NCBI GenBank assembly: GCA_964365185.1
Contig: CAYIOP010000001.1
Location: 34,675-98,674 of the forward strand
Length of the DNA stretch: 64,000 nucleotides
Source of the DNA: an uncultured Candidatus Saccharibacteria bacterium
GTDB taxonomy: Bacteria > Patescibacteriota > Minisyncoccia > UBA6257 > 2-01-FULL-56-20
Direction: 5' to 3'
Shown here: piece after piece, positions 357-29,520 of the stretch
Numbering within the stretch: position 1 is the stretch's first letter
Layout of the letters: each line of letters starts with the position of its first letter
Program-made: the position numbers and the translations under genes
The notes under the pieces: generated by a model
Database searches by the model: none
Told to the model about the DNA's origin: nothing
Seen by the model: the letters and a program-made list of their open reading frames with translations, nothing else

Positions 357-387
357 TAGAATCTAGGATTGAGAATATAGATTATAG
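357..387. repeat. heptad-periodic TAG repeat (TAG at 357, 364, 378, 385; GAG at 371)
   Basis: Read directly in the sequence: tagaatc taggatt gagaata tagatta taggtgg, starting immediately after the stop codon of the upstream + gene. Confidence 0.5.
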
Positions 388-439
388 GTGGCGAAATTTA
401 AATTTCTTTTTCTAAATCCTATATTCTAAATTCTGTATC

Positions 440-946
440 CTAATTTTTTTTCGTGCGTTCCAGAAAATCTTTGAGTGATTTAGGGGAGCTCGCAAAATGG
501 AGTAGGATGCCGAAAGTCGCGCCTAGAGTGACTGAGAGTAAGAGGTCGTTGTGTTCTCTAATTAGAAGGTAATCAACCAAGGCGTAGAGTGAGAGCGTAG
601 TGATTAAAAGTACAGTGAGACCGATGGTTTTTAAGCCAGCCACTGTTTTTTTGGCGCTGAAAAGAATAAGAGTGATTAAACTTGAAGCAAAGGCCAACCA
701 GAGATTAAATCCCTGGAAAATTGGGTTATTAGGGAAGCCGACGCTCGTGAACATTCCGGCTTTATAAACTACGATTATCGCCACTAAAATTACTCCTCCC
801 CAAAATCCGGCTTTAATGGATTTTACCTCTTTAACAAAATCCGGATCTTTGGCGGTTTGTTTGGTGGTCAAGACAATAACTAAAAGAATAAACGGCACTA
901 TGACCCAGATGATGAGGTTGAACAAAAAATCCAGGGTTTTAGGCAT
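440..946 (-). CDS. hypothetical integral membrane protein (4-5 predicted TM helices)
   Basis: 168-aa ORF with strongly hydrophobic segments and no recognisable catalytic motif. Confidence 0.4.
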   Translation of the reverse strand: MPKTLDFLFNLIIWVIVPFILLVIVLTTKQTAKDPDFVKEVKSIKAGFWGGVILVAIIVVYKAGMFTSVGFPNNPIFQGFNLWLAFASSLITLILFSAKKTVAGLKTIGLTVLLITTLSLYALVDYLLIREHNDLLLSVTLGATFGILLHFASSPKSLKDFLERTKKN

Positions 947-2922: not shown

Positions 2923-3605
2923 AAATAAAAACCAAATCCGGAAAAATTCGGTTTGACGCCATTACGATTTTCCCTAAAATATTCGATTCTTATTTGAAAG
3001 AATCGCTTTTTAAGCGCGCTTTGGCGAATAAATTAATTGAATTTAAAGTTTGGAATCTTCGAGATTTTACGCAAGACAAACATCATAAAGTTGATGATCG
3101 GCCGTTTGGGGGCGGGCCGGGAATGGTTTTAAAAATTGAGCCGATATATCGGGCAGTATCGTTTTTAAGCGAAAAACGAAAAGCGAAAAGCGAAAAGTTG
3201 AAAATCAGGGTTATTTTGTTTTCAACAAGAGGAAAAAAGTTAGATGTTAAAATGGCGCGGCGACTTTTGAGTTATGATCAGTTGATTTTAATTTGTGGCC
3301 GGTATGAAGGAGTAGATGAAAGAGTGGTGAGATATGTAGTGGATGAAGAAATTTCAATCGGGGATTATGTTTTATCTGGAGGTGAATTGCCGGCTTTGGT
3401 TTTAGTGGAAACGGTAGCTCGTTTAATCCCCGGTTTTCTCGGAAAATATGAATCCCTTGAGGATGTTAAGGGATTTTATCCGGTTTACACTCGGCCCGGA
3501 GATTTTAAACCGGAGGGGAAAATAAAATTTTTGAGCGCGCCAAAAATTCTTTTGTCTGGAGACCATAAGAAAATAAAAGCGTGGCGGGATAAATTTAACA
3601 ATTAA
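2919..3605 (+). CDS. trmD: tRNA (guanine37-N1)-methyltransferase TrmD
   Basis: Contains [22 protein letters not shown] and [17 protein letters not shown], the SPOUT-fold motifs of TrmD. It also carries an in-frame KRKAKSEK insert encoded by a gaaaagc heptad repeat. Confidence 0.85.
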
Positions 3606-8764: not shown

Positions 8765-9900
8765 TGGCTAGAAAAATTATTCTTTTAACTGGAGGCGGAA
8801 CCGGTGGACATATTTATCCATTGGTGGCAGTTGCTCAAAAGCTGATTAAGGTGGGTTTTGGGAGTGGTGAATTGCAAATTAAATATTTAGGGCCAATGAA
8901 TCAGTTTAATGCTGTTCTTTCGGTTAATTACGGAGTTAGAATGCACAATCTTTTAAGTGTTAAGTTTCGGCGCTATTTTTCTCTTTTAAATTTGATTGAT
9001 ATTCCAAAATTTTTTTTGGCGCTCGCACAGGCTCTATGGAAAGTTTTTTGGATTATGCCGAATGTTATTTTTTCAAAAGGCGGAACCGGAGCTTTACCAG
9101 TGGTTTTAGCCGGTTGGTTTTATCGAGTGCCGATTGTAATCCATGAGTCAGATGCCGTGCCGGGTTTAACTAATTTGGTTTCCGGCAGATTTGCTCGAAG
9201 AATTGCCGTGGGGTTTGATTCAGGGCTTCAATATTTTGATCCCAATAAAGCGATTTTAACAGGTAATCCGGTAAGAGAAGAACTTTTAGGAGACCGATAC
9301 GCGAAAGATATTGCCAAAGAGGAGTTGGGTTTTAAGGGATTAGAGCCATTAGTGGTTTTTTTGGGGGGATCGCAGGGTTCAAAAAGGTTAAATGATTTTG
9401 TGCTTTTAAACCTTAGGGATTTGCTTTCTGAAGCGCAGATTTTGCATCAGGCGGGGTGGGATAATTTTTCGGAAATTGAGAAACTTTCAAGAGCTGCGCT
9501 ACTGGACCTGGATTTGAAAACCGAATTAGAACATCGCTACAAAGTAGTACCGTATTTTTTAGAAAATTTAAGAACGGTTTTAATCGCTGCGGATTTAGTG
9601 GTGACAAGAGCTGGCGGCGGAGCAATTTTTGAATTGGCTGCTTTTGGAAAGCCAGCACTTTTAATTCCTTTGCCGGAATCAGCCGGAGGTCATCAGCGAG
9701 TTAATGCATATGAATTTGCTAAGGCCGGCGGGGGAGTAGTGATTGAAGAAGACAATTTATTTAAGGGAATATTTTTGGGTCAATTTCGGGAAATTTTAAA
9801 AAATGAGGCCTTGAGAAAAAAAATGGAATTGTCTTCGGCTAAATTTTTTAAGCCCGAGGCGGCAGAATTGTTGGCTCAAGAATTAATAAATTTGATTTAA
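8764..9900 (+). CDS. murG: MurG, undecaprenyldiphospho-muramoylpentapeptide beta-N-acetylglucosaminyltransferase
   Basis: N-terminal LTGGGTGGHIYPLVAVA glycine-rich loop and GT28 architecture. It sits immediately downstream of ftsW. Confidence 0.85.
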   Translation: MARKIILLTGGGTGGHIYPLVAVAQKLIKVGFGSGELQIKYLGPMNQFNAVLSVNYGVRMHNLLSVKFRRYFSLLNLIDIPKFFLALAQALWKVFWIMPNVIFSKGGTGALPVVLAGWFYRVPIVIHESDAVPGLTNLVSGRFARRIAVGFDSGLQYFDPNKAILTGNPVREELLGDRYAKDIAKEELGFKGLEPLVVFLGGSQGSKRLNDFVLLNLRDLLSEAQILHQAGWDNFSEIEKLSRAALLDLDLKTELEHRYKVVPYFLENLRTVLIAADLVVTRAGGGAIFELAAFGKPALLIPLPESAGGHQRVNAYEFAKAGGGVVIEEDNLFKGIFLGQFREILKNEALRKKMELSSAKFFKPEAAELLAQELINLI

Positions 9901-9986
9901 TCTGGTAAATCGATTCGAATTTTTTCAATGATATTTCAATGGTCATGCCTTTAAAATCAAGGAAAATTGTGCTATAATTCGTTTTT

Positions 9987-11396
9987 ATGGCCTTAATTTC
10001 GAAAAAAGAGGTTCGAGTGCGGATTGCTCCGTCGCCAACTGGCCATATGCACGTGGGTTTGGCACGAACCGCGCTTTTTAACTGGCTTTTTGCGAGGCAG
10101 GCGGAGGGCGAGTTTTTGCTTAGAATTGAAGATACTGATATCGAGCGTTCGGAAAAAAAGTACGAAGATGAGATTATTCAGGGTTTGAGTTGGTTAGGTT
10201 TGAATTGGGATGGTGAGGTTTATCGCCAGAGTGACCGGAGGGAAGTTTATAAAAAATATCTTAAGAAATTAATTGAGGAGAATAAGGCCTATTATTGCTA
10301 TTGCGCCAAAGAAGAACTTGAGGCCCAGAGGCAGGAGATGATAGCCGAAGGGTTAGTGCCTAAATATAACGGTCGTTGCCGTTCCCTTGATAAAGTTGAT
10401 GCTAAAAAACCGAGTGTTATTCGACTTAAGATTCCGGAAATAAAAATTGAATTTAAGGATTTGATTCGAGGCAAGGTGGAGTTTGACGTCGGTCTTTTTG
10501 GAGATTTGGTAATTGCTAAGAACTTGGAAAATCCCCTTTATAATTTTGCGGTGGTGGTGGATGACGAGGAGATGAAAATTAGCCATGTAATCAGGGGTGA
10601 GGATCATATTTCAAATACGCCCCGGCAGATTTTAATTGGGCAGGCGCTCAGATTTCAAATGCCAATTTATGCTCACATTCCTCTAATTTTGGCGCCGGAT
10701 CGGAGTAAGTTATCCAAACGTTCAAATGAAGTATCGCTTTTAGAATACAAAGAAAGAGGATATTTGCCGGAGGCAATGGTAAATTTTTTAGGTTTTTTGG
10801 GTTGGCACCCGGAAGGAGATGACGAGATTTTGGATTTAAAGAAAATGGTTCAGCTTTTTGACATCGCTAAAATTCAGAAAGGCGGAGCGGTTTTTAATCA
10901 GGAAAAATTAGATTGGTTTAATAATCAGTATTTGCGAAAACTCTCGGCGGAGGAAATTTATGAATGCTTGAAGCCGTTTCTAAAAGAAAATAAAATTGAA
11001 TCACCCCCTAGTTTTATAAAGAAAGTTATCGAGGTCTTGAAAGAACGAATGAAAACCTTGATTGAATTTTTTGAGTTGGCCGACTTTTTCTTTAATTTAC
11101 CGGAATATGACGTGAGCTTGCTTAAGTGGAAAGATCAATCCTTGCCAGATGTTAAAATAATACTCGAGAAAATTTTTGAGGCCTTTTCCGGTGTTTCGGA
11201 TTCGGAATTTCATTCTAAGAAGTTGGGTGAGATTTTAAATTCATTAATTAATGGAACTCCTCGAGGAGAGGTGTTTTGGCCGCTTCGCGTCGCTCTTTCG
11301 GGAAAAAACGCTTCACCCGATCCTTTAATGATTACTGAAGTTTTAGCGAAAATCGAGACAGTCAGACGAATTGAACTGGCAATTGGTAAAATTTAG
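9987..11396 (+). CDS. gltX: Glutamyl-tRNA synthetase
   Basis: RIAPSPTGHMHVG (the HIGH motif variant of GluRS) and KLSKRS (the KMSKS motif). Confidence 0.9.
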   Translation: MALISKKEVRVRIAPSPTGHMHVGLARTALFNWLFARQAEGEFLLRIEDTDIERSEKKYEDEIIQGLSWLGLNWDGEVYRQSDRREVYKKYLKKLIEENKAYYCYCAKEELEAQRQEMIAEGLVPKYNGRCRSLDKVDAKKPSVIRLKIPEIKIEFKDLIRGKVEFDVGLFGDLVIAKNLENPLYNFAVVVDDEEMKISHVIRGEDHISNTPRQILIGQALRFQMPIYAHIPLILAPDRSKLSKRSNEVSLLEYKERGYLPEAMVNFLGFLGWHPEGDDEILDLKKMVQLFDIAKIQKGGAVFNQEKLDWFNNQYLRKLSAEEIYECLKPFLKENKIESPPSFIKKVIEVLKERMKTLIEFFELADFFFNLPEYDVSLLKWKDQSLPDVKIILEKIFEAFSGVSDSEFHSKKLGEILNSLINGTPRGEVFWPLRVALSGKNASPDPLMITEVLAKIETVRRIELAIGKI

Positions 11397-11407
11397 GCAA
11401 AAAAATT

Positions 11408-12688
11408 ATGATAACTTTTAAAAAAATAGTTTTAGTTTTGGGAATTTTGGTTCCGGTTTTTTTTCTGGTTAATTTTACGGTGGCGGCGGAGCCAAGCGGG
11501 GTTTCCTTGGAGAGGAGTGAACTTGAGGCGCGAATTAAAGTCCAAAACGAAGAGTTGGAAAAATTGAATCGTCAGTTAGAGGAGACACAAACTAAACTTG
11601 AAGGCACAAAAAACGAGCGGTTAACTCTACAGAAAGAGTTGAGCAATATTAAAAATTCCATTACTCAATTAAATTTAAGCATTAAAACGGATCAAGCTAC
11701 GGTCAATAAGCTGATACTTGAAATTGATTCTTTAAACTTTGATATTCAGGATATTGAGGTCTTGTCGGATTACAAGAAAAATTCGGTGGCAGAACTTCTA
11801 AAAGCCATTAATCGGAATGATCAGGTTAATTTTTTAACAGTATTTTTAAGCGGCGATAGTTTAGCAGATAGCGTTTCTGATCTTCAAGCGCTCTCTAGCA
11901 CCGGATCGCAACTTGGGACTGATATTCAAAATTTAGAGAAATTGCGAGGGGAGAAAGTTAAGAAAGCCACTGAAATTAGCAATAAGAAAGTCGAAATTTC
12001 ACGGCGGAAGGAAGATCTTGAGAGTAAAAAATTTATTATTGAAGACCAAGAGGGTGAGAAACGGTCAATTTTGGAAGAGACCAAAAATAAAGAGAGTGTT
12101 TATCAGAAGGAATTGGATGATTTAAGAAAAAAGCAGGATGAAATTGCCGAGCAGATCTCGAAATTCGAAGAAGAGTTGCGGATTAAATTTGACGTGGGGC
12201 TTTTGCCAACTAAACGCTCGGGTGTTTTTGATTGGCCGGTTAAACTTAAAAAAGATGGCGGCACGGGTATTATCACTCAGCATATGGGTGAGGTCTCCCG
12301 GCTCTATAAGGGTAAGCCGCATAATGGACTGGATATCGGTACACCAGTGGGCACGCCAGTTTTGGCGGCTGAAGACGGGACGGTAATTGCGGTGGATGAT
12401 AATGACCGGAGTCAGTGGAGAAAATATCAGTACGGAAAATATGTTCTGATCCGGCATGAAAATAATCTGACCACTCTTTACGCGCATCTTTCCAGGCAAT
12501 CAGTGGCTAAGGGTCAGACCGTGAAGAGGGGAGAGGTGATAGGTTATTCCGGTAATACCGGTTATTCAACTGGAGCGCATTTACACTTTGGAGTTTATTG
12601 GGCAGCGAGCGTGCTTATGAAGGCGGTGCCACCGGCTTTGGGTTTGGTGCCAGTCGGAGTGGTGGTGAATCCGGAGGATTATCTCTAG
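11408..12688 (+). CDS. M23-family peptidoglycan DD-metalloendopeptidase with N-terminal coiled coil (EnvC-like)
   Basis: Signal/TM segment, a long heptad coiled-coil region, then HNGLDIG...GNTGYSTGAHLHFGV, the M23 HxxxD/HxH motifs. Confidence 0.8.
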   Translation: MITFKKIVLVLGILVPVFFLVNFTVAAEPSGVSLERSELEARIKVQNEELEKLNRQLEETQTKLEGTKNERLTLQKELSNIKNSITQLNLSIKTDQATVNKLILEIDSLNFDIQDIEVLSDYKKNSVAELLKAINRNDQVNFLTVFLSGDSLADSVSDLQALSSTGSQLGTDIQNLEKLRGEKVKKATEISNKKVEISRRKEDLESKKFIIEDQEGEKRSILEETKNKESVYQKELDDLRKKQDEIAEQISKFEEELRIKFDVGLLPTKRSGVFDWPVKLKKDGGTGIITQHMGEVSRLYKGKPHNGLDIGTPVGTPVLAAEDGTVIAVDDNDRSQWRKYQYGKYVLIRHENNLTTLYAHLSRQSVAKGQTVKRGEVIGYSGNTGYSTGAHLHFGVYWAASVLMKAVPPALGLVPVGVVVNPEDYL

Positions 12689-12690
12689 AT

Positions 12691-12721
12691 TAGGTTTTAG
12701 GTTTTAGGTTATAGGTGATAG
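12691..12721. repeat. heptad-periodic TAG repeat: TAG at 12691, 12698, 12705, 12712, 12719 (exact 7-nt spacing)
   Basis: taggttt taggttt taggtta taggtga tag, read directly. It follows the TAG stop of the M23 peptidase gene and places stops in all three frames. Confidence 0.55.
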
Positions 12722-12769
12722 AGATACAATAGTAATACAATGGCGATACAATTGAGATATAATTGAAAA

Positions 12770-13174: not shown

Positions 13175-14977
13175 ATGAATCGGGAAATTCGAAATTGCCA
13201 AAATTGCAAAACTAATTTTGAAATAGACGCTTCGGATTTTAAATTTTATGAAAGGATAAAGGTTCCGCCGCCGACGTGGTGTCCGGAGTGTCGGATAGTT
13301 CGGCGAATGTCGGTTCAGAATCAACGGGCTTTATATAAACGAAAATGTGATTTGTGCGGAAATGAAATGGTAACTTTTTTCTCGCCAGAGGCGCGAGATA
13401 CTGTTTATTGCCAAAAATGTTGGTGGTCGGATAATTGGGACCCGTTTCAATATGGGCTGGAATATGATTTTTCCAAACCGTTTTTCGCTCAATTTAGAGA
13501 ATTATTAGATAGAGTTCCGTGGTCAGCGCTCCAGACAGTTTATACCACGATGGTAAATAGCGAGTATTGCAATATCGCTTCCTATCTAAAGGACTGTTAT
13601 TTAATGTTTAACTCTGATTACAGCGAGGATTGTTATTATGGAACTTATGTGGAACGGAGTAAGCGTTCATTTGATCTTTATATGGCTGACTACGCGGAGA
13701 TTTGTTACGAGAGCAATAATTTAGAGAAATGTTATCACGTTTTTTATTCGAGTAACTGCAATAATTGCATCGATGTTTATTTTTCAAGAAATTTGCGAGG
13801 TTGCTCGAAGTGTTTTGGTTGCGTTAATTTATCCAATAAACAGTATTACATTTTTAATGAGCCCTATTCCAAAGAAGAGTATTTTAGAAAATTGAAACAA
13901 TTCGATTTGGGGTCAAGAAAGACGGTTTTAGAATTACGTCAGCAGATGGCCGACTTTAATCTTAAATTTCCAAGAAAATTTGCGGAAGGATTTAAGAATT
14001 TAAACGTCTCGGGAGATTATGTGTTTAATTCCAAAAATACTTATTTGAGTTATGAAATGGCCGAATCCGAAGATTGTAAATTTTGCCAATTTCTTTTTAT
14101 TGAAACCGCGAAGAATTGTCAAGATGTGACGATGTGGGGTGGGGGACTTACCAACTCTTATGATTCAATGGGTATTGGCGGAGGAGCGGACCAGATTAAA
14201 TTTTCTTTTGATTGTTGGGCAAATCTTATGAATATTGAGTACTGTTTCGATCTTTTGGTTATGAACTCAGACCTTTTTGGGTGCAGCCGATTGAAAAATA
14301 AAAAATTCTGTATTCTAAATAGGCAGTATTCTGAGAAAGAATATAATGATTTAATTCCGAAAATTAAAAAACAAATGGATGAAGTGCCTTATATCGATAA
14401 GAAGGGCCGAGTATATAAATATGGAGAGTTTTTCCCGCCTGAAATCCACTCTTTTGCTTATAATGAAACAATCGCACAGGAATATTTTCCATTGACTAAG
14501 GAAGAAGCTATAGACCAGGGTTTTCGTTGGAAAGATGCTCAAGATAAGAATTATCAAATTACGATTTCAAGCGACCAGTTGGCGGATAATATTAAGGAAG
14601 TTGAGGATGGAATTTTAGGCCAGATAATTGGCTGCGAACATTTTGGTAAGTGCAAAGATCAGTGCTCAGTGGCGTTTAAAATTACTCCTCGAGAATTGGA
14701 ATTTTATAGGGCCGAGAATATCCCAGTGCCTCGATTATGTTCGAATTGCCGGCATTACGAGCGATTAAGGAATAATAATCCTATGAGATTTTATCATCGC
14801 AGGTGTGGGTGTGAGGGGTTGCAAAGCGTAAAGAGCAAGGCGCAAAATAGTTATCAAAACGTGGCTCAACATTTTCATGGCGGCGATCATTGCCCCAATG
14901 AATTTGAAACAACTTACGCGCCGGAGAGAAGAGAAATTATTTATTGCGAGGAATGCTATCAACAAGAAATAATATAG
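13175..14977 (+). CDS. Cys-rich zinc-ribbon family protein (pseudo-symmetric A-B-core-A'-B')
   Basis: N-terminus CQNCKTNFEIDASDFKFYERIKVPPPTWCPECR (A), then KCDLCGNEMVTFFSPEARDTVYCQKC (B). The core has repeated C..C.NC and CFGCVNLSNKQYYIFNEPYSKEEY units. The C-terminus repeats A' (ITPRELEFYRAENIPVPRLCSNCR) and B' (HCPNEFETTYAPERREIIYCEECYQQE). Confidence 0.6.
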   Translation: MNREIRNCQNCKTNFEIDASDFKFYERIKVPPPTWCPECRIVRRMSVQNQRALYKRKCDLCGNEMVTFFSPEARDTVYCQKCWWSDNWDPFQYGLEYDFSKPFFAQFRELLDRVPWSALQTVYTTMVNSEYCNIASYLKDCYLMFNSDYSEDCYYGTYVERSKRSFDLYMADYAEICYESNNLEKCYHVFYSSNCNNCIDVYFSRNLRGCSKCFGCVNLSNKQYYIFNEPYSKEEYFRKLKQFDLGSRKTVLELRQQMADFNLKFPRKFAEGFKNLNVSGDYVFNSKNTYLSYEMAESEDCKFCQFLFIETAKNCQDVTMWGGGLTNSYDSMGIGGGADQIKFSFDCWANLMNIEYCFDLLVMNSDLFGCSRLKNKKFCILNRQYSEKEYNDLIPKIKKQMDEVPYIDKKGRVYKYGEFFPPEIHSFAYNETIAQEYFPLTKEEAIDQGFRWKDAQDKNYQITISSDQLADNIKEVEDGILGQIIGCEHFGKCKDQCSVAFKITPRELEFYRAENIPVPRLCSNCRHYERLRNNNPMRFYHRRCGCEGLQSVKSKAQNSYQNVAQHFHGGDHCPNEFETTYAPERREIIYCEECYQQEII

Positions 14978-15051
14978 ACAAACATTCTGAAGTCCGGCCA
15001 TAGCTTAAGCGACGGTGGACGAACAATGTTATAATGCAGAAGTAGCATAAA

Positions 15052-15088
15052 TAGAATCTAGAATTTAGAAAATAGAAGGTAGTAAGTG
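15052..15088. repeat. heptad-periodic TAG repeat (TAG at 15052, 15059, 15066, 15073, 15080)
   Basis: tagaatc tagaatt tagaaaa tagaagg tagtaag, read directly in the spacer between the Cys-rich gene and murC. Confidence 0.55.
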
Positions 15089-15146: not shown

Positions 15147-16541
15147 ATGACTAAAAAAGAGCACTCCCCTAACTTAAATAGAGTTCATTTTGTTGGTATT
15201 GGCGGCATAGGAATGAGTGCTCTGGTACGTTGGTTTTTAGCTAAAAAATGGCTTGTATCGGGCTCTGATCTAGTAGAAAGCCAGATTACTGATAGTTTAA
15301 GAAAAGTTGGCGTAAGGGTCAAAATTGGCCATAAAAGAGTTAATTTACCTCAAAATGGCCTTAAGATGGTTGTTTATAGCCAAGCCATTCACCATGACAA
15401 CCCAGAATTGCTTGAGGCGCGAAAATTGGGCATTATTCCTCTTTCATATGGGGAGGCAGTCGGGTGTCTTACAAAGATTTATAAAACGATTGCCATTGCC
15501 GGTAGTCATGGCAAAAGTACGACTACGGCTTTAGTTGGAATTGTTCTCTCGGCGGCGAAGTTCGACCCGAATGTGATTTTAGGCACTAATCTTAAAGAAT
15601 TTCACGGAACTAATTTTAGGCAAGGACGATCAAGGTGGCTGGTTTTGGAGGCGGATGAGTGGAAGGCCTCTTTCTTAAATTATTTTCCTTTTATAACCGT
15701 GGTTACTAATATCGATAAAGAACATCTGGATTATTACAAAACCTTTGGCAACGTCAAAAAGACATTTCTTAAATTTTTAGGTAATACCGAAGATGGCGGA
15801 TTTTTGATTTTGAATCGCGACGACAAAATTTTATTTTCGCTCCAGTCCTCTATTTTAAAATTGACAAGACAGAAAAAATTGAAAGTTCATTGGTATTCAG
15901 TGAGTAAAACTCAAAGTGAAAAACGAAAAGCGAAAAGTTTAGGGAAGATTTTAAAAATTTCGGGCGAGCATAATATTTCAAATGCGATGGCGGCTTTCAC
16001 TGTGGCTAAAGTTTTGAGAATTAAAGAGTCGATTGCAACTGGGGCACTCGCTAATTTTCAAGGAGCGTGGAGAAGAATGGAGTATAAGGGCAAATGGCAA
16101 ATAGCAAATAGCAAATCAATTTTAGTGTTTGACGATTACGCTCATCATCCCACGGAGATTCGAGCAACACTTCGGGCTTTTCATGAAAAATTTTCGACTT
16201 CTCCGATTGTTTGTGTTTATCAGCCGCATCAGGCCGAACGACTTAAGAATTTATTTTCGGAGTTTGTGGACTCATTTTTAGATGCGCATGTTTTAATTTT
16301 TTTGCCGGTTTATGAAGTGGCGGGCCGCGATCGGGTGAATCGCGGTTTTACCTCAGAACGATTGGCCAAAGCGATTGCCAAGAAATATTCTCGAAAGCAC
16401 GTGTATTATCTAAAAAATCCAAAGCTTTTGAAGGGATTTTTGAGGCATATCGTGGAGCATTTTGGCTTTACCCACTCCCCTATTTTGGTGATGATGGGCG
16501 CGGGAGATATTGTTAAATATACTCCTCTCTTGTTATCATAG
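15147..16541 (+). CDS. murC: UDP-N-acetylmuramate--L-alanine ligase MurC
   Basis: VHFVGIGGIGMSAL (Mur ligase N-terminal Rossmann loop), IAGSHGKSTTT (P-loop) and HHPTE. Two in-frame heptad-repeat inserts give KRKAKS and KGKWQIANSKS. Confidence 0.8.
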   Translation: MTKKEHSPNLNRVHFVGIGGIGMSALVRWFLAKKWLVSGSDLVESQITDSLRKVGVRVKIGHKRVNLPQNGLKMVVYSQAIHHDNPELLEARKLGIIPLSYGEAVGCLTKIYKTIAIAGSHGKSTTTALVGIVLSAAKFDPNVILGTNLKEFHGTNFRQGRSRWLVLEADEWKASFLNYFPFITVVTNIDKEHLDYYKTFGNVKKTFLKFLGNTEDGGFLILNRDDKILFSLQSSILKLTRQKKLKVHWYSVSKTQSEKRKAKSLGKILKISGEHNISNAMAAFTVAKVLRIKESIATGALANFQGAWRRMEYKGKWQIANSKSILVFDDYAHHPTEIRATLRAFHEKFSTSPIVCVYQPHQAERLKNLFSEFVDSFLDAHVLIFLPVYEVAGRDRVNRGFTSERLAKAIAKKYSRKHVYYLKNPKLLKGFLRHIVEHFGFTHSPILVMMGAGDIVKYTPLLLS

Positions 16542-21610: not shown

Positions 21611-22470
21611 AATTTGTTTTTTTTGGAACGCCGGAATTTGCTGAAATTGTTTTAGATAAATTAATTCAAGGCGGTTATATTCCGTCGGCGGTAATTTGTA
21701 ATCCAGACAGGCCAGTTGGCAGAAAAAAGATTATCACTCCCCCGCCGGTGAAGACGCGAATTATGAATTATGAATTAGGAATTAAGAATCAAATTAAGAT
21801 TTTGCAACCAGAGAAATTAAATCCTTCATCATTCTCGATTCATGATTCTTTATTCGATTTATTTGTCGTGGCGGCTTACGCTAAGATTATTCCAGCGGAG
21901 ATCTTAAAAATTCCGCGTCTTGGGGTAATCGGGGTTCATCCATCACTCCTGCCTAAGCATCGAGGGCCATCGCCGATTCAGTCAGTGATTTTAAACGGCG
22001 ATAAGGAGACAGGCGCTGCTCTGTATTTGATGGACGCTTTGGTGGATCATGGGCCGATTTTAGAAAGTCGAAAGTTGAAAATAGAAAGTAGAATAAATTA
22101 TTTAGAACTCGAGAGGCAGCTGGCGGAGTTAGGAGGAGACTTATTGGTTGAAGTGTTGCCAAAATTTGTTGAGGGAGAAATCAAGCCCGAGATTCAAAAT
22201 GAGGATGAAGCAACTTTCACCAAGAAATTTACCACTCAAGACGCGTTTGTGAATTACAGTGATTTACTCGAGGCGGAGAATGGTGATTTCAATTTAGCTT
22301 TAATGATTGACCGAAAAATTCGGGCTTTTGTGGCGGAGCCGGGTGCCTGGACGATTCGAGATGGGAAGCGAGTTAAACTTTTGGAGGCGGAAATTGTGGG
22401 AGTGAATTTACGGCTTAAGAAAATTCAAGTTGAGGGAGAGAGGCCGAAGATGGTAGAAAATAGTAAATAG
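21607..22470 (+). CDS. fmt: Methionyl-tRNA formyltransferase
   Basis: MKFVFFGTPEFA and GVHPSLLPKHRGPSPIQ (formyltransferase SLLP motif). It follows def with a 4-nt overlap. Confidence 0.85.
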   Translation: MKFVFFGTPEFAEIVLDKLIQGGYIPSAVICNPDRPVGRKKIITPPPVKTRIMNYELGIKNQIKILQPEKLNPSSFSIHDSLFDLFVVAAYAKIIPAEILKIPRLGVIGVHPSLLPKHRGPSPIQSVILNGDKETGAALYLMDALVDHGPILESRKLKIESRINYLELERQLAELGGDLLVEVLPKFVEGEIKPEIQNEDEATFTKKFTTQDAFVNYSDLLEAENGDFNLALMIDRKIRAFVAEPGAWTIRDGKRVKLLEAEIVGVNLRLKKIQVEGERPKMVENSK

Positions 22471-22500
22471 AAAGCAGAAAATCGGACTGCAGAATGTTTT

Positions 22501-24207
22501 CTATATAATTTCTTTTAAGTAGCATTCCTTGCATAGAATTTCTTTGTAGTCCTCTAGGGTATAGCTGCTTTGGAATTTACTTTGGCATTTAAAACAGGTT
22601 CGTTCCACTAAAGTTAAATCTTTCACCCAGTCCTGGAATTTTTTTTCAATTCGGCAAAAGGGACATTCGCGCGGCAGAGGTAGATTCATTTGTTTTAGGA
22701 AGTCGAGTTCGGACTGAATGATTTTGAAGCCGCGGTCGCATTTAGCGCAACCAATAATTTCATTTAAAATATCGCGTGGAGCGTCTTTGATATGATCCGG
22801 AAGATGTTCCGATTTAATTGAGATTTGATGATTTTTGGGTTCGCTTTCTTTCCATGCGTAGCCGGCATTTAGTGTTTGTTCTTTTGTAAGCGGAAAAAAA
22901 TTATTGGCCATAGTTTCATTATAGGCCCAAGGACTCATCTCGATTGGGAAAAACTCGCCGTATTTATAAATTTGTCCGCGGCTGTTTTTATAAGGCATCT
23001 CATTCATATGATTGATAATTTTTTCACGGAGTTGCCAATATTCCTTTTCCGGATATTTTTTGTTGAAAATCACAAATTTTCCTTTCTTGAGCGATGAACA
23101 GGCAAAGTAGTTAGCGCCGCCAAGCACGGTATTGCAGTATTCGGCGTCGATTAAATTAATTCCACTTTGAGTGGAAAACTTTACTCGATGAGCTCCTTCT
23201 CCGGTTACGCTTACTTCGTAGCAGAGTTCCATATTGTTGCCCCAACTGGTGATATCATAGCAATTCTTAATGGGTGCAACGGCGAGCATAAATAAATATT
23301 TAGAATCAATCGCTCCGGCGACCTCGTAGCACTCCTTACAATTTTTGGACTCAAAAACATAATTGCCGGTACAGTTCGTCACAAATTCCGAACAATATGG
23401 CAGAGGCGGATGTTTTTGCCAATTTTCTTCACTCAATTTTTGAGCCAGTTTATAGTTTTGATACGAGCCCAAGTCGAATTCTTTTAATTTTTTAGCATAT
23501 TCCTCTGGGGTATATTTCTGATTGAAAAATACATACTTTTGATTTCTAAGATTGGTCGAGCCAAAACAATTTTGGCAATTTGCGGAGTCCCGAAGAAAAT
23601 GGCAGTTAAGCGATTCAGTAACCTGCTTACGCAGGCCAACGCACCGGTTATTTTTGAAAGAATGTTCGCAGTCGTAGCAGAGTTCGGAGTGACTAATAAG
23701 TGATGAATCGAGCGTATTTTTGGAGTTAGTGACGTAGAAGCCATAGCTGCAATCTTCACTGAAGTCGGCATGAAACAGGAGGTAGCAATTTTTGAGATTG
23801 CCAACATGATTGTTGTATTCGGAGTTGATCATCGTGGGCAAGGCATTCGAGAGTCCGATGGTCGGTACTTCCAGCCAAAATTTCTTTAATTGCTCAAAGA
23901 AGGGTTGATTAAAGTCATAGTCGCGGCTATATTCATAAGGGTCCCAGTCATCAGACCACCAACATTTAGGGCAGTAGATTTTATAAAGGGACTCTGGAGA
24001 AAACATGGAAAGAGAGTTTTTGCCGCAAAGATCGCATTTCCGCTTGTAAATTTTTAAAAGATTAAAAAAAGCCAGGCGCCTTTGAAAGCGGCACTTGGGA
24101 CAAAAAGTCGGTGGCGGGACTTCAATTTTTTGGTAGAAATTAAAGTCCTCGGGTTCGATGGTGAATTCAGATTTGCAATCTTGACAAATCTTTGTTTCTG
24201 AATTCAT
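22501..24207 (-). CDS. Cys-rich zinc-ribbon family protein (tandem array member 1)
   Basis: MNSETKICQDCKSEFTIEPEDFNFYQKIEVPPPTFCPKCRFQRR at the N-terminus. Internal NCQNCFGSTNLRNQKYVFFNQKYTPEEY, and a C-terminal CPFCR...YKEILCKECYLKEII zinc-ribbon pair. Confidence 0.6.
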   Translation of the reverse strand: MNSETKICQDCKSEFTIEPEDFNFYQKIEVPPPTFCPKCRFQRRLAFFNLLKIYKRKCDLCGKNSLSMFSPESLYKIYCPKCWWSDDWDPYEYSRDYDFNQPFFEQLKKFWLEVPTIGLSNALPTMINSEYNNHVGNLKNCYLLFHADFSEDCSYGFYVTNSKNTLDSSLISHSELCYDCEHSFKNNRCVGLRKQVTESLNCHFLRDSANCQNCFGSTNLRNQKYVFFNQKYTPEEYAKKLKEFDLGSYQNYKLAQKLSEENWQKHPPLPYCSEFVTNCTGNYVFESKNCKECYEVAGAIDSKYLFMLAVAPIKNCYDITSWGNNMELCYEVSVTGEGAHRVKFSTQSGINLIDAEYCNTVLGGANYFACSSLKKGKFVIFNKKYPEKEYWQLREKIINHMNEMPYKNSRGQIYKYGEFFPIEMSPWAYNETMANNFFPLTKEQTLNAGYAWKESEPKNHQISIKSEHLPDHIKDAPRDILNEIIGCAKCDRGFKIIQSELDFLKQMNLPLPRECPFCRIEKKFQDWVKDLTLVERTCFKCQSKFQSSYTLEDYKEILCKECYLKEII

Positions 24208-24316: not shown

Positions 24317-26107
24317 TTATTGAATTTCACCTTGATAGCATTCGGAACAGTAAATTATTTCAGGATCATTGTTTGAGTAGCTGGTCATAAATTTATTTTG
24401 ACACTTTGTTTCGCCATGAAGATGGGCGGTTCGATTTTCGTATATTATCTCTCCAGTTGAGTTTTCTGAAGTTCTTCCGCCACACATACAAAATTTTTCA
24501 GATAGATTATAGCGTTCTCGGCCGTTATTTCTGATATGGCGTCGGCATTCGGGGCAAAGTCGCGGAAGGGCGACGTTAATCATTCGGTAGAACTCCAGTT
24601 CCTTGGGAACGATTTTGAAAGCTCTTTTGCATTGGTGGGCACAATCTCCTCTATGAGAGCAGTTGATAATTTTTTCTAATATTTTGTCGTCCGTGTTTTT
24701 TATGTTATCCGGCAGATCTTCGGGATTTATGGTGTTCGCGTAGGTTTTTAGTTCCGCGTCTCGCCACCAAAGTTTTTGTTTTTGAGCTTTTTCTTTGGTG
24801 ATCGGGAAATAGCGCTGAGCTAAGGAGTTATTGTAGGCGCAGGTTGAAAATTCCGGCGGGAAGAATTCGCCGTACTTGTAAATGTGGCCAAGTTCGTTGA
24901 TGTAGGGTGTTTGCTTCATTTGTTCTATAATCTTCGGCACTATTTTTTCATATTCTTCCTTCGTGTATTGTTTATTTAGAATGCAGTACTTTTTTTTTCT
25001 TAACCCAACGCAGCCGAAAAGATGTTCGCATGATTGGCAAGTATCGCAGTATTGTAAATCTAAGCTTTCTCTGGCGCCGTTGGTGAATCTGATGTTTTGG
25101 GAATTAAACGCGCTGCTGGCGTAGATAAGCTCGCATTTTTCGCCTCCAGCGAAGACGTCGTAGCTGTCTTTGATTCTTCGGCCGCAGATTAGGAGATATT
25201 TGCTGTTTTCCGCGCCGTCTCTAACTTCGAAGCTATGCTGACAGTTTTTGGCGTTTTCGATGTCGTTGCCGGTGCAACCAACGGTGTTTTTTTCCGCCAT
25301 ATACTTTCTTGGGATTTTCGATTTAAGTTTTTCGAATTCTTTTTTGGCATCTTTTAAAGTTTTATGACTACCGAGATTTAGCTCCGACATTTTTTTTTCA
25401 TATTCTTTTTTGGAGTAGGGTTGATTGAAAATATGATATTGTTTGTTTCGTAAACCGACGCAGCCGAAACAGTTGGAGCAATTTCGGCAGTCGTAGAGAA
25501 ATTTTGAATCTAAACATTCATTGCATTGTTCAGAAAATAAAAGATTGAAACAGCGAGTACAAGAACAGGATTCATACATGTTTTCGCAAAAAATTAATAT
25601 TGAGACGTCAATGCATTTGCGGCTTACGGCAGGCGTGTCTGAATACATGCAGTCTTCAGAGAGATAGGCTCCGGAGACGAGGTAACAATTTTTTGAGTTT
25701 GAGGCCCAGGTGCAGTAATCGCAGTTTATTGAGTTAATTGAACGTACATTCGCTAAAGGAACAGAGTTTAAGAGTTTTAGAAATTGCTCGAAAAAGGGCT
25801 TTGAAAAATCGTAGTCGAGGCCATATTCGGTCGGATCCCAGGCATCGGACCACCAATAGTCGGAATCGTATATTTTGAGTCCTCTTTCCGAAGGATATCT
25901 AGAAATGAGTTCTTCGCTGTGGCCGGGTGCCTGGCATTTGACGCGGAAGAGCGCACCTTCATTCGACCAAATGAGTTTATGCATCATTCGGCACTTAGGA
26001 CAAAAAGTCGGCGGTGGGACTTTAATTTTTTCGTAGAAAGCGAAGTCATCGGGTTCGATGGTGAAAGTTGATTTGCAGTTTTGGCAAATTCGCGAATCTT
26101 GAGTCAT
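24317..26107 (-). CDS. Cys-rich zinc-ribbon family protein (tandem array member 2)
   Basis: MTQDSRICQNCKSTFTIEPDDFAFYEKIKVPPPTFCPKCR at the N-terminus. Internal CFGCVGLRNKQYHIFNQPYSKKEY and CEHLFGCVGLRKKKYCILNKQYTKEEY, and a C-terminal CPECR...IIYCSECYQGEIQ. Confidence 0.6.
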   Translation of the reverse strand: MTQDSRICQNCKSTFTIEPDDFAFYEKIKVPPPTFCPKCRMMHKLIWSNEGALFRVKCQAPGHSEELISRYPSERGLKIYDSDYWWSDAWDPTEYGLDYDFSKPFFEQFLKLLNSVPLANVRSINSINCDYCTWASNSKNCYLVSGAYLSEDCMYSDTPAVSRKCIDVSILIFCENMYESCSCTRCFNLLFSEQCNECLDSKFLYDCRNCSNCFGCVGLRNKQYHIFNQPYSKKEYEKKMSELNLGSHKTLKDAKKEFEKLKSKIPRKYMAEKNTVGCTGNDIENAKNCQHSFEVRDGAENSKYLLICGRRIKDSYDVFAGGEKCELIYASSAFNSQNIRFTNGARESLDLQYCDTCQSCEHLFGCVGLRKKKYCILNKQYTKEEYEKIVPKIIEQMKQTPYINELGHIYKYGEFFPPEFSTCAYNNSLAQRYFPITKEKAQKQKLWWRDAELKTYANTINPEDLPDNIKNTDDKILEKIINCSHRGDCAHQCKRAFKIVPKELEFYRMINVALPRLCPECRRHIRNNGRERYNLSEKFCMCGGRTSENSTGEIIYENRTAHLHGETKCQNKFMTSYSNNDPEIIYCSECYQGEIQ

Positions 26108-26181: not shown

Positions 26182-27834
26182 TTATGATATTTCGGCTTGA
26201 TAACATTCAACGCAGGAAATTTTTTGAAAAGTAAGTTTGGGTGAATAGTAATGTTCAATCTCTTTTTGGCAATAGACACATTTTCCTTTTTGCGGCTCCA
26301 TCATTAGAGTTAAGGGGTGAAAGCGGTTTAGGGTTCGCCAGTCAAAATGTTGTCTTGGTAGAGGGATTTCATGCTCGCGGTAAAACTGAAGTTCTGACGG
26401 GGCAATATTATAGCTTAATTTGGTTTCTGGACAGATGATGCGTTGTTTAGTAATGTCGTCTTTAACATTATCTATTTTATCCGGTAGGTCTTCCGACCTA
26501 ACTCCAACGTATTCCGGATTTTTAGGTTCTTCCCATTTAGCTCCGAATTTTAAAGCGCCCTCTTTTGTTTCGGGAAACATAATTTGAGCGAGAGAATAGT
26601 TGTATCCAGCATAGGCGGCGCTAAGTGGAAAAAATTTTCCCCACTCCCCTCTTTGCTTCATATCTGTTTCTATCTTTTTCTTTAGCGTTTCGTATTCTTG
26701 TTGGCTATATTGTTTGTTTAAAATGCAATATTTTTTCTTTCTTAATCCCACGCAGCCAAAACAATATTCGCACTCTTCGCAGTTATCCAGATAAGCGCTG
26801 TAGCGACAATAGCCGGTATAGAGATTACAGAAATTTTCATATCCCCATTGGTCCAGGGAACTCCGGGCGCATTTTTCCGATGGGCAGCCCACCGCATCAA
26901 TGAGGTCTTTACCGTCTATTCCCCTTAAAGAATAGCGGCAATTTTCCGATCTTTCCAAAAAATAACAGCTATGGCAGTTTTTGTTTTCCAATAAAAAGTT
27001 GCCGCTGGAATTTGAAATTTGGACATTAAAATGCGCGCGGTGAATCGTGTCTTTTTGAAGATGGCTCCAAAATTCTTTTTTTAGTTTTTCGACAGCGGAA
27101 TAAGAATTGAGTTCAAAACTTTTTATTTTTTTAAAATATTCTTCTTTTGAATAAGGTTGGTTTAAAATATAATATTGTTTATTTCTCAAATTCCAGGACA
27201 TAAAACAGTTTTGACAGTTGCGGCAGTCATAGAGAAAAGCGCCTTCTATACAGTCACGTGAGTTGAAGCAGTGTCGCAGTTTGAATCCCTTAAAACAATA
27301 GAGGCAGTCATAACATTTTTCTAGTTCAAAACAATAAGTTATATCCAGAGAATTTTTCGAGGCGAAAGCCCTGTAGCCATAACTGATATCCTCGATTTTC
27401 CAAGCTGACCTGGTGAGGTAGCAATTTTTTGATTCCCAAACATCGTCGGTCCAGTCACAATTGGTGTTTCTAAGACCGGTTTGATGAGGATGAGGAACTT
27501 TGGCTTGAAGTTCCATTAATTGTTCAATAAAAGGCCGGGAGGCGTCATAATCGCGGCCGTAGGCTAAAGAATCCCAGGCGTCTGAGACAAATTCTTCCCG
27601 TTCGTAGATTGGAAAAGGCACGCTCTCGGGTAAGACGGTAATGAGCCGTTTACCGCTTAGGGCGGAATTGGTGATTCGAAAGCGGCCAAAAATCCAAAAG
27701 GACAAAAGATATTTCCATCGACAGAGTGGGCATTGGTCTGGCGTCGGCAAATCGAATCTACTATAGAATTCTTTGTCGATATCTTCTATTTGAAATTCTT
27801 TTTGGCAGTTTCGGCACGTTTTGTTTTCAGTCAT
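26182..27834 (-). CDS. Cys-rich zinc-ribbon family protein (tandem array member 3)
   Basis: Start placed at M13 (MTENKTCRNCQKEFQIEDIDKEFYSRFDLPTPDQCPLCR) to avoid a 34-nt overlap with the upstream gene. Internal CQNCFMSWNLRNKQYYILNQPYSKEEY and CEYCFGCVGLRKKKYCILNKQYSQQEY, and a C-terminal ISCVECYQAEIS. Confidence 0.55.
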   Translation of the reverse strand: MTENKTCRNCQKEFQIEDIDKEFYSRFDLPTPDQCPLCRWKYLLSFWIFGRFRITNSALSGKRLITVLPESVPFPIYEREEFVSDAWDSLAYGRDYDASRPFIEQLMELQAKVPHPHQTGLRNTNCDWTDDVWESKNCYLTRSAWKIEDISYGYRAFASKNSLDITYCFELEKCYDCLYCFKGFKLRHCFNSRDCIEGAFLYDCRNCQNCFMSWNLRNKQYYILNQPYSKEEYFKKIKSFELNSYSAVEKLKKEFWSHLQKDTIHRAHFNVQISNSSGNFLLENKNCHSCYFLERSENCRYSLRGIDGKDLIDAVGCPSEKCARSSLDQWGYENFCNLYTGYCRYSAYLDNCEECEYCFGCVGLRKKKYCILNKQYSQQEYETLKKKIETDMKQRGEWGKFFPLSAAYAGYNYSLAQIMFPETKEGALKFGAKWEEPKNPEYVGVRSEDLPDKIDNVKDDITKQRIICPETKLSYNIAPSELQFYREHEIPLPRQHFDWRTLNRFHPLTLMMEPQKGKCVYCQKEIEHYYSPKLTFQKISCVECYQAEIS

Positions 27835-27836: not shown

Positions 27837-29504
27837 TTAGATAACTTTTTGTTGGTAGCAACTTTCGCAAAAAATAATTTCGGGTTGGTCAGGAGCGAAA
27901 TTTGTTTTAATTGGTTTTTGACAGTTCGCGCAATTGCGATCAAATATTTTAATTGGTCCTCTTCTATTTATCCTAGCTTGGTGGCGACAGTAAAAGCAAT
28001 GCCGCGGGAGAGGTATGGACATGAGTTTATAAAACTGGAATTCAGCTTGAATGATTTTGTAGTTTCGTTTACAAGAAACGCAGGCGAGAATTTCGTCTAT
28101 AATTTTTTCTGAAATTTCGCTAATATCATCTGGAATCTTTTCTGATTTCAGAGTTTCTTTTCCGGTTGTTATTTGAAGATTATCTTCCCAGCGATAACCT
28201 TGGGCAAGGGCTTCGTCTTTAGTGAGCGGCAAGTTGTCTTGCGCAATAGTTTCGTTATAGGCGAAGAGATTAAGAGCTGGTGGGAAGAAGAGTCCATAAT
28301 CCCCCGCCTGAATAAGTTCCTGCTTGATTGTGTTCGTAATTTGCCGATATTCTTTTTCGTCGTAGCGTTTATTTAGAATTGAAAATTTGGAGTTTTTTAT
28401 GCCATCGCAACCGAAACATTCTTGGCTATTACGCGTGGCGAAGCAATAAGCGACATCTTGAGCGTTTTCCACCCACCAAGAGCTGATGACTCTGGCGCTA
28501 TAACCAGTGGCAACTGCTTCCAACAACAATTCGGAGTTGCGGCCATGGCCGATAATGTCGTAGGTGTCTTTTGCTAATTTAACCGAGAAAGAGTAGTTGA
28601 CGTTTTCACAAAAGGCTAATTCAAATGAGGAGCGACAATTTTTTGATTCAAAAATGTAGTCGCCGGTTACAGCCACACTTTTTAGATTGTTGTTTTCGCG
28701 GCGTGGGAATTTAAGAGAAAATTCATCAAAGTTTTTCGCGAATTCTTTTATGGCGCTATAGCTGCCGATAATTGGTTCGACTTTCTTTTTCCACTCTTCT
28801 TTAGAGAGCGGTTCATTTAGAAAATGGTATTTTTTATGGCGAAGATTAACACAACCGAAGCAATTTTGAAGACCGACGCAATTTAAGAGAAATGAGGAAT
28901 CGAGGCATTCGGAAACATTTTGAGACCAAGAGACGCCTTTGCTGTTGTGAATATTTACTCCTTCGTAAATGTTTTCTGATTTATCAATATTGTAGCCGTC
29001 AAAGACATTGCGGCACTGGAGCATTCCGCGAGAATAGGCGCAGTTTTCATTATTGGGTCCGGAGTTGGCGACGAGATAGCAGTCCTTGTTGCCGCCAGCA
29101 AAGTTTTCATACGGACTGTTTACGCTTTTCATTACGTCGCTGCGGTAAAGTGCACATTTAGGAACTGAATGGGTTAATTCTTTGAATTGATCGAAAAAAG
29201 GCCGATTTGAATTATAAACTCGGCCGTAAGAAAAAGAATCCCATTTATCGCTATGCCAGCAATCGGGACAATATACCGTGAAAGTTGAGGAAGGGCTATA
29301 CATTGAAATAATCGGCTCATGGCAGAGATCACAGGAACGATTATATAAAACAAATTCGTTTCGAAATTGGGCCTTTCTTTTAAAGCGGCATTCAGGACAT
29401 AAAATAGGCGCCGGAACGCCCATTTTTTTATAGAAAGTGAAGTCGTCGGGTTCGATGGTGAACCCATTTTTGCAATTCTGACAAATTCTTGAATCTTGGA
29501 TCAT
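27837..29504 (-). CDS. Cys-rich zinc-ribbon family protein (tandem array member 4)
   Basis: MIQDSRICQNCKNGFTIEPDDFTFYKKMGVPAPILCPECRFKRK at the N-terminus. Internal NCFGCVNLRHKKYHFLNEPLSKEEW, and a C-terminal CFYCRHQ...IIFCESCYQQKVI. Confidence 0.6.
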   Translation of the reverse strand: MIQDSRICQNCKNGFTIEPDDFTFYKKMGVPAPILCPECRFKRKAQFRNEFVLYNRSCDLCHEPIISMYSPSSTFTVYCPDCWHSDKWDSFSYGRVYNSNRPFFDQFKELTHSVPKCALYRSDVMKSVNSPYENFAGGNKDCYLVANSGPNNENCAYSRGMLQCRNVFDGYNIDKSENIYEGVNIHNSKGVSWSQNVSECLDSSFLLNCVGLQNCFGCVNLRHKKYHFLNEPLSKEEWKKKVEPIIGSYSAIKEFAKNFDEFSLKFPRRENNNLKSVAVTGDYIFESKNCRSSFELAFCENVNYSFSVKLAKDTYDIIGHGRNSELLLEAVATGYSARVISSWWVENAQDVAYCFATRNSQECFGCDGIKNSKFSILNKRYDEKEYRQITNTIKQELIQAGDYGLFFPPALNLFAYNETIAQDNLPLTKDEALAQGYRWEDNLQITTGKETLKSEKIPDDISEISEKIIDEILACVSCKRNYKIIQAEFQFYKLMSIPLPRHCFYCRHQARINRRGPIKIFDRNCANCQKPIKTNFAPDQPEIIFCESCYQQKVI

Positions 29505-29520
29505 GAATCGTGAAGCGAGA

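Follow-up and report, generated by a model that had tools for sequence, protein, structure and literature searches.

Does a run of heptanucleotides that places stop codons in every reading frame behind a gene exist for the sake of those stops, or are the stops incidental to the way in which the repeat came about? This question is raised by an array at positions 12686–12721 of the stretch of DNA analysed here, 64,000 nt of contig CAYIOP010000001.1 (assembly GCA_964365185.1, positions 34,675 to 98,674, forward strand), to which we refer as the window. Its named homologues come from Liptonbacteria, Wolfebacteria, Jorgensenbacteria, Colwellbacteria and Paceibacterota, and by its sequence the window is placed in a Paceibacteria genome of the candidate phyla radiation (CPR), a metagenome-assembled genome (MAG) of an ultra-small bacterium from Hainich groundwater well H43 (ENA ERZ1292629). 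A preliminary description had reported at least six intergenic spots with an invariant (T)AG core every 7 nt, and had considered frame insulation, protein binding or a slippage-prone 7-mer process behind them. We find that the arrays are a DNA-level phenomenon of period 7, and we regard them, with more confidence than doubt, as lineage-wide heptanucleotide simple sequence repeats (SSRs) which result from copying in a 7-nt register and are kept where they are tolerated, the stop codons being a by-product.

A period of seven in the window and its relatives

The array in question and the repeat next to it are the following:
12686–12721, forward strand: focal array, about 4.5 units of TTAGGTT, beginning at the TAG stop codon of an M23-peptidase gene (11408–12688)
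12721–12766, forward strand: period-11 array of four GAGATACAATn units, adjoining the focal array, with -10-like boxes (TACAAT three times, and TATAAT)

The focal array reads TAG ATTAGGT TTTAGGT TTTAGGT TATAGGT GATAG, is called by Tandem Repeats Finder (TRF) as 3.9 copies of TTAGGTT with 95% matches, and closes all three frames on both strands, by TAG on the forward and by TAA on the reverse strand. Together with the period-11 array, whose final -10-like box lies 9 nt 5' of the ATG at 12770, it makes up the 81-nt spacer, which holds nothing else. A promoter/terminator scan found no terminator-like sites around the focal array and only two weak promoter-like sites, 3' of it. The orthologous spacer of the relatives L012 and L013 lacks the array (loci used for comparison carry L numbers throughout).

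The periodicity is specific to seven. With at least 18 matches in a 21-nt window required at a given offset, 48 positions of the window show period 7, and the other periods from 2 to 15 show none except period 11 (1 position) and period 14 (4 positions). At 16 of 21 matches, 10 period-7 arrays are found, compared to 0.27 after global dinucleotide shuffling and 0.45 after shuffling in 300-nt blocks, with a maximum of 3. When any trinucleotide is admitted as core, 36 period-7 runs of at least four units appear (AAA 7, GAA 4 and TAG 3 among them), against 0–3 at periods 5, 6, 8 and 9. About 15 period-7 arrays were found by the offset-7 scan, at least seven of them within genes, and by TRF and offset-7 scans the window arrays have the properties of heptanucleotide SSRs, namely at least three head-to-tail copies, an excess over composition and specificity for period 7. 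All six spots reported previously are indeed 7-nt periodic, the one at 36920–36951 more weakly (15 of 25 matches at offset 7, AGG core). The (T)AG core is the commonest one, its TAGRWWN family accounting for about 40% of close-clade arrays, but it is not invariant, as the three TAG runs out of 36 in the window illustrate. The scan for NNNNTAG that had been suggested as a check was carried out over 107 regions 3' of genes, taken from the window and from the relatives closest to it, and returned 8 runs of at least three units versus 0.04 in shuffled sequence, and 0–1 runs at the control periods 6 and 8. The lack of enrichment that would have refuted the preliminary description is thus not seen.

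Fifteen further contigs, from other Hainich H43/H41 assemblies and from Logan, are 99.5–100% identical to the window and gap-free across the arrays they cover at consensus level (357–441, 12690, 15049, 15913 and 16082). Since these replicates are identical and gap-free, assembly artefacts can be excluded, and the arrays show no hypervariability at consensus level. That they arose by chance or misassembly has a negligible probability: beyond the low coverage (3–8) of the MAG contigs nothing speaks for it, while the shuffle nulls, the controls at other periods, the identity of the letters across independent assemblies and studies, and the frames that stay open through arrays in essential genes all speak against it. 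We also considered a phase-variable contingency locus and dropped it, as no indel is seen at any covered array in the fifteen contigs; the arrays differ from that class as well in having 3.5–8 units and in lying in or beside trmD, murC, fmt, secDF and dnaK, instead of being long arrays at surface or otherwise variable genes.

For comparison, loci around murC were taken from GTDB genomes and metagenomes. The closest relative in the protein collection shows 63–67% identity. TRF detects 42 arrays of period 7 with at least three copies in 492 kb of Patescibacteria loci, or 8.5 per 100 kb, against about 2 per 100 kb or less at any other period, and in 1.8 Mb of unrelated MurC loci period 7 reaches 2.6 per 100 kb, which is not above periods 6, 8 and 9. 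Within the close clade (157 kb, 41 arrays) the density is about 2.6 per 10 kb, or roughly one array per 4 kb, with 13.4 per 10 kb in intergenic and 1.5 per 10 kb in coding DNA, a difference of ~9-fold. Arrays occupy about 5% of the intergenic DNA, and about half of them lie within coding sequence. They comprise 3.5–8 units or about 25–60 nt, most of them 25–46 nt. No array exceeds 8 units in the window, or about 6 perfect units among the relatives from Patescibacteria. The dominant unit family of the clade is TAGRWWN / TTAGGTT, among many different units.

Unrelated lineages (Desulfobacterales, other deltaproteobacterial MAGs and Desantisbacteria) carry heptamer arrays as well, in agreement with the literature. 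Examples are found in L039 (6020–6200), in L040, L041 and L055 (GGGTTCT), in L134 (11353–11457) and in L077 (394–503); long arrays (GTCAGAT, about 25 units) occur among them, as do inverted pairs right after murC.

Individual arrays and the genes they occupy

The other arrays of the window are listed here in order of position:
357–387, forward strand: TAGAATC/TAGGATT array of 5 units (TAGAATC TAGGATT GAGAATA TAGATTA TAG), 3' of a Cys-rich gene fragment ending at 353; left arm of an inverted pair
410–441, reverse strand: inverted partner of 357–387 (AGGATAC AGAATTT AGAATAT AGGATTT), overlapping the stop codon of gene 440–946 (reverse strand)
3167–3205, forward strand: GAAAAGC, about 5 units, in frame inside a variable segment of trmD
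15049–15088, forward strand: TAGAATC/TAGAAAA array of 5 units (from 15052, TAGAATC TAGAATT TAGAAAA TAGAAGG TAGTAAG), 71 nt 3' of Cys-rich gene 13175–14977 and 59 nt 5' of murC
15913–15937, forward strand: GAAAAGC, 3.6 units, inside murC (site 1)
16082–16116, forward strand: GGCAAAT/AGCAAAT, 4 units, inside murC (site 2), between WRRMEYKG and DDYAHHP
21758–21792, forward strand: GAATTAT, 5 units, inside fmt (site 1), where it codes for RIMNYELGIKNQ, with 6 aa inserted in comparison to L013 and L098
21821–21858, forward strand: GATTCnT, 5 units, inside fmt (site 2), where the structure is predicted with the lowest confidence
22061–22093, forward strand: TAGAAAG/TCGAAAG, 4.7 units, inside fmt (site 3)
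22454–22482, forward strand: TAGAAAA, 4 units, spanning the end of fmt and encoding its stop codon (22468–22470) and last residues
29485–29520, reverse strand: GATTCAA-type array of 5 units, spanning the start codon of Cys-rich gene 27837–29504 and encoding MIQDSRI
35633–35690, reverse strand: nnACCTA, 8 units, whose degenerate part encodes the SecD C-terminal tail and which supplies the secD stop codon (35637–35667: TAGGTGA TAGGTTT TAGGTTT TAGGTGG)
36916–36951, reverse strand: nACCTnn, 5 units, directly 5' of the secD ATG
56384–56409, reverse strand: ATTTTGA, 3.7 units, 12 nt 5' of the dnaK start codon
57710–57755, reverse strand: CCTGATA, 5.4 units, between the terminator of gene 57825–58130 and the hrcA operator/promoter, which resembles the controlling inverted repeat of chaperone expression (CIRCE) (57718–57748: TGATACC three times, TGATACT, TAATACC)

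The arrays had been described as intergenic, which does not hold: trmD, murC and fmt contain at least seven of them in frame, within segments that are variable or carry small indels with respect to solved homologues. The clearest recurrence concerns murC site 2, where the segment between WRRME.G and DDYAHHP holds a heptamer array in the window and in about 12 relatives. The units differ from genome to genome and include GCAAATA, GTATCAT plus AGGATAC, AATACnn, AATTTTC, AAGATAC, GCTAAAC and GAATTCA as well as AATTCCT, AACTAAA, AATTTCC, TTGAAAA, AAGTTCA and CATCTCT, and the length of the segment is often constant (81 nt in L012, L178 and L179; 87 nt in L015 and L017). In fmt, the window, L179, L180 and L181 have arrays at about nt 150, 210 and 455. 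At site 2 these four genomes carry GATTCnT, CATCTCT, AAATCTT and AATTCTC in a gap-free alignment, and at site 3 the frame of the window gene is open because two units are without TAG. The site 1 peptide RIMNYE(L/S)GI(K/R)N is conserved in many Paceibacteria Fmt proteins, the 6-residue block being missing from others, and this conservation suggests that an old array has become fixed protein sequence. The site 1 arrays of the window and L180 are nearly identical, but a transfer between them was rejected, since the flanks are about 80% identical too and the peptide is conserved, which points to vertical inheritance. In the predicted Fmt structure (mean predicted local distance difference test score, pLDDT, 91) site 2 is the least confident part, whereas sites 1 and 3 lie in a confidently predicted helix and strand. 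This model thus rules out that arrays occur only in disordered loops, and it would have them mark sequence-variable segments in general.

Some arrays in the window are related to each other. Those at 357 and 15052 are not independent, because both share the flank GAAGTAGCATAAA, a relic of a paralogous gene end; judged by this flank, the array at 15049–15088 is homologous by descent to that at 357. The arrays of murC site 1 and trmD have a 20-nt string in common, GAAAAACGAAAAGCGAAAAG. The junction AACCTAATCTC(A/C)ATG recurs in the arrays upstream of secD and secF, and the junction AACCTAATCT is found in three window arrays beside a start or stop codon, where about 0.03 exact copies are expected by chance. 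Orthologous arrays are present in L178 for 29485–29520 and in L015 for the secD–secF spacer (CCTAAAT).

The pair 357–387 / 410–441 lies between convergent genes and is predicted to form a long hairpin with U8 behind it (-29.3 kcal/mol for 345–460, z = -4.3 versus shuffles), and in this predicted fold it looks like a bidirectional terminator. The consensus terminator scanner makes no call here, owing to the A/U-rich stem and the long loop. Inverted array pairs comparable to it occur in L181, L134 and L077 and within murC of L013. Folding does not exceed that of shuffles in the focal, 15049, fmt-end, secF-leader and secD-leader regions (z between -1.2 and +1.2), and the fold upstream of hrcA (z = -3.35) is mainly due to the terminator and CIRCE stems. 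An Rfam search of the window at gathering scores returned tRNA-Lys as sole match and no RNA family at the arrays.

The whole 26-nt spacer between secD and secF consists of array sequence, which stops 6 nt short of the secF ATG. The His-rich N-terminal extension of the secF open reading frame (ORF) had rightly been suspected to be an artefact of the repeat, and the true start is the ATG at 35630. Both this array and the one upstream of secD are poor in G, and no structure is predicted for them. Most window genes have no Shine-Dalgarno (SD) sequence and many have TATAAT 5–15 nt before the ATG, which suggests, as far as sequence can tell, that mRNAs are as a rule leaderless or have very short leaders. 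SD-less starts are exemplified by 6132, 9987, 12770, 31567–32154, 32167–33552, 33600–34628 and 37763–38209, and AAGGAG(G) is present at only a few genes (37208, 57825 and 63164).

Several observations concern the neighbourhood of the arrays. Two features lie at 57683–57709 and 57775–57800 on the reverse strand: the CIRCE-like inverted repeat TTAGCAGAG-N9-GATTGCTAA overlaps a TTGACA box 5' of hrcA-grpE-dnaK, and a classical terminator of the preceding gene with GC stem and U7 lies just 5' of it. The Cys-rich genes form a group of six paralogues (3–353, 13175–14977, 22501–24207, 24317–26107, 26182–27834 and 27837–29504) of about 555–600 aa with the N-terminus M(T/I)QDSRICQNC and the C-terminus CxxCYQ.E.., mostly ending in EII, and with no Pfam hit on record. 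Their cluster stands beside VirD4/TraG-like coupling proteins (30098–31564 and 1102–2922) and is conserved in L013 and L178. In L013 an insertion of about 600 nt (9370–9990), with an ORF that by eye resembles a LAGLIDADG homing endonuclease, separates the Cys-rich gene from murC; in the window this place is taken by the gene-end relic together with a heptamer array. Finally, the spacer 5' of gene 42610–43056 holds a tandem repeat of period 14–16/28 (43056–43116, TRF score 64).

Stop codons and the origin of the arrays

The stop content of the arrays follows largely from what they are made of. Units are A/T-rich and TAG-rich, giving a stop-rich pool, and since 7 mod 3 equals 1, successive TAG-containing units place stops in every frame. 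If tandemised, a heptamer drawn at random from intergenic DNA would carry a sense stop with a probability of 0.40. Among the intergenic arrays 20 of 23 have a stop-bearing unit in sense orientation (15.7 expected upon permutation of their own bases) and 17 of 23 in antisense (13.2 expected). In coding arrays of the CPR set the consensus unit would hold a stop in 23 of 39 cases (20.9 expected), but every one of the 27 would-be stops in frame is altered, compared to 47 of 67 out-of-frame ones that are intact. The tsaD gene of L180 (19890–20861) has five separate heptamer arrays in one essential gene, one of them composed of the focal unit, (TTTTAGG)5, through which the frame is kept open by one TTTTGGG unit. 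We conclude that stop content stems mostly from A/T-rich unit composition, beyond which either strand shows a mild excess, that selection merely patches the reading frame, and that the case for a strand-specific design is not convincing.

One rival reading is frame insulation. Arrays would end ribosomes in every frame after genes and before starts, and in an organism with mostly SD-less genes they would intercept the products of read-through and frameshifting, or bring terminating ribosomes close to the following start codon for re-initiation. The 8 TAG runs downstream of genes, the sense stops in 20 of 23 intergenic arrays (p about 0.007), the arrays that finish 1–14 nt 5' of a start codon, the lack of an SD sequence in the majority of genes, and the TAACTGA repeats of Beggiatoaceae, which show the same properties (PMC4679880), can be read in this way. 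However, the antisense excess is nearly equal. The placement after genes claimed by the preliminary description is borne out as an enrichment of TAG runs, but not as an orientation, with 8 sense and 4 antisense runs and no significant bias. Its three-frame arithmetic is correct, but the gene strand is fully closed only at 12686, 15052 and 57718: the spot at 357 closes two of three frames (the third unit has GAG), the secD and secF copies close two of three on the reverse strand, via TAA, and among the frames left open in these three of six spots is that of secF itself. Moreover, units of identical kind, stop-bearing ones included, occur within ORFs, and the orthologous spacers of close relatives are often without an array. 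Insulation as the purpose of the arrays, in either form, is therefore improbable to us.

A DNA-level process with a 7-nt register is required, since selection on proteins cannot create a period of 7. We propose that the arrays arise and are re-homogenised by copying in this register, and that the copying step would be slipped-strand misalignment, possibly with length-neutral templated correction or with occasional multi-unit events. For intergenic arrays plain in-place slippage would suffice. In genes, templated correction or multi-unit events would be favoured, because single-unit steps would shift the frame of essential genes and because sites change their unit at constant length. Selection would then act as a filter, letting arrays persist wherever they are tolerated, and some may since have come to serve as stop codon and C-terminal tail (fmt and secD), as spacer of the SD-less secF or as hairpin terminator. 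This comes close to the slippage-prone 7-mer process that had been named among the possible origins.

Several observations weigh against this proposal. No array differs in copy number among the fifteen further contigs at consensus level, which gives no sign of ongoing slippage, and exact 2-unit duplicates at offset 7 show no excess, which is confined to arrays of at least 2.5 units. Since slippage by single units would shift the frame of essential genes, arrays in coding sequence would call for a hypothetical process that is saltatory or preserves length. The excess of stop-bearing units over the composition-matched null, albeit mild, has p values of about 0.007 in sense and 0.02 in antisense. 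TAG is found at 0.63 of its expectation genome-wide, yet it is present in 19 of 48 close-clade arrays, versus 12.2 expected from permuted units; GAA stands at 30 versus 15.8 in the same comparison. Array pairs from the same genome share strings of at least 12 nt in 5.5% of cases, against 2.2% overall (2.5-fold, p = 0.002, longest-shared-string test). The murC site 2 arrays of the window and L181 match in 25 of 27 nt though their MurC proteins are only 54% identical; the flanks are about 55–60% identical, as estimated by reading the alignment, and closer relatives carry other arrays. Shared strings, TAG richness and common junctions thus hint at dispersal, a sequence-specific generator or selection.

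A bolder possibility is that Paceibacteria have a hitherto undescribed mutational process which would write and rewrite tracts of ~30 nt at a 7-nt register and constant length, through templated conversion at offset 7, in spacers and in tolerant segments of essential genes alike. It would explain the different units of MurC and Fmt at constant length, the patched in-frame stops and the unit families within genomes, and we consider it unlikely. Rather improbable, in our view, is a dispersal of preformed cassettes of 30–40 nt, not grown in place, by insertion in the manner of miniature inverted-repeat transposable elements or by ectopic conversion. Such mini-elements would account for the three copies of AACCTAATCT, the 20 nt common to the trmD and murC arrays, the CATCTCT arrays of L179 in both murC and fmt, the array shared by MurC of the window and L181, and the sharing within genomes (p = 0.002), and inverted pairs (357/410 in the window, and in L181, L134 and L077) resemble terminal inverted repeats. 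On the other hand, neither target-site duplications nor fixed ends were seen, no transposase is tied to the arrays, and most of them are solitary direct repeats with degenerate edges. The units of one site in related genomes are often 1–2 changes apart, as for in-place evolution, and the first test for within-genome similarity, based on consensus-unit distance and on a smaller set than the shared-string test, gave no excess (p = 0.32).

It is very unlikely that the arrays are periodic sites for a protein which reads 7-nt registers (with an oligonucleotide/oligosaccharide-binding fold, Csp-like or S1-like) and tunes transcription, mRNA stability or SD-independent initiation. In its favour, the leader RNA is predicted to be unstructured, binding of CspB amounts to one protein per heptamer (reviewed in PMC4679880), a restricted repertoire of units is common within and between genomes, and arrays stand directly 5' of secF, secD and dnaK and, in L181, of the L27 gene and fmt. 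Against this stand the many unrelated units, the occurrence of both orientations 5' of start codons, the half of all arrays in coding sequence and a position relative to promoters that is not conserved, and no candidate protein was identified. Copying in a 7-nt register with subsequent selective filtering remains the reading we prefer.

Relation to known heptamer repeats

Why prokaryotes prefer tandem units of 7 nt is a question that dates from 1990 and was taken up anew in 2007, and there is no experimental answer to it. The CPR clade described here offers a compact case of high density. CPR genomes generally have a reduced repertoire of replication and repair genes, which is probably so here as well, so that comparing array-bearing with array-free lineages could help to find the enzyme behind the arrays. 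In practical terms, arrays create false ORF extensions as in secF, supply real stop codons and C-terminal tails, and mark hypervariable stretches of enzymes that are conserved in other respects. If length-preserving rewriting were true, it would be a new route from simple repeats to protein sequence, the Fmt insertion RIMNYE(L/S)GI being an example, and the arrays would not be merely junk.

Heptamers are the most abundant class of long SSRs in many prokaryotes, and polymerase slippage has been proposed for them (Mrazek et al. 2007, as cited in PMC4679880 and PMC4692102). As far as these citing accounts portray them, the long heptamer SSRs of Mrazek, Guo and Shah (2007) resemble our arrays in their head-to-tail units, the excess at period 7, a mostly intergenic location and a dependence on lineage; the present arrays differ in their CPR host, in being short and many, and in lying to about one half within conserved essential genes. 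Another related system is the TAACTGA repeat of marine Beggiatoaceae, some cyanobacteria and Bacteroidetes (MacGregor 2015, PMC4679880), with 2–6 intergenic copies, often a few nt 5' of SD-less starts, stops in three frames in forward orientation, and some copies overlapping ORF ends or residing in ORFs. Here arrays lie a few nt 5' of the starts of secF, secD, dnaK and several genes of relatives, yet most genes are SD-less in any case and many arrays lie elsewhere. In contrast to that system with its one dominant unit, we find many units, mixed orientation and recurrence in segments of essential genes, and TAACTGA itself occurs in the window in 7 single copies and never in tandem.

The short tandemly repeated repetitive sequences (STRRs) of heterocystous cyanobacteria (Mazel et al. 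1990, as cited in PMC4692102) are reportedly dispersed tandem heptamers, mostly intergenic, in arrays often longer than those seen here. Their units CCCCAGT, TTGGTCA and CAACAGT have no tandem copies in the window. The same is true for GGGAATC and GGGGATT of the GGGAATC / GGGGA(T/C)T repeats in Xanthomonas and Nostoc (Rehm et al. 2015, PMC4692102). These are likewise intergenic heptamers with occasional inverted pairs forming stem-loops, whose position is kept between related genomes while length and sequence vary (PMC4692102), but they are G-rich and form quadruplexes, whereas our units are A/T-rich without runs of G. The promoter heptamers of hmw1A and hmw2A in Haemophilus influenzae (PMC8262952) are tandem 7-nt units 5' of genes as well; those are long, hypervariable switches of surface genes, while the arrays described here are short, identical between replicates and associated with housekeeping genes. 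In the literature searched, heptamer repeats have not been linked to CPR or Patescibacteria. The class of heptanucleotide SSRs is thus known, and what is new here is the lineage, the unit families, the high density of short arrays, and their recurrent occupation of essential genes with patched stops.

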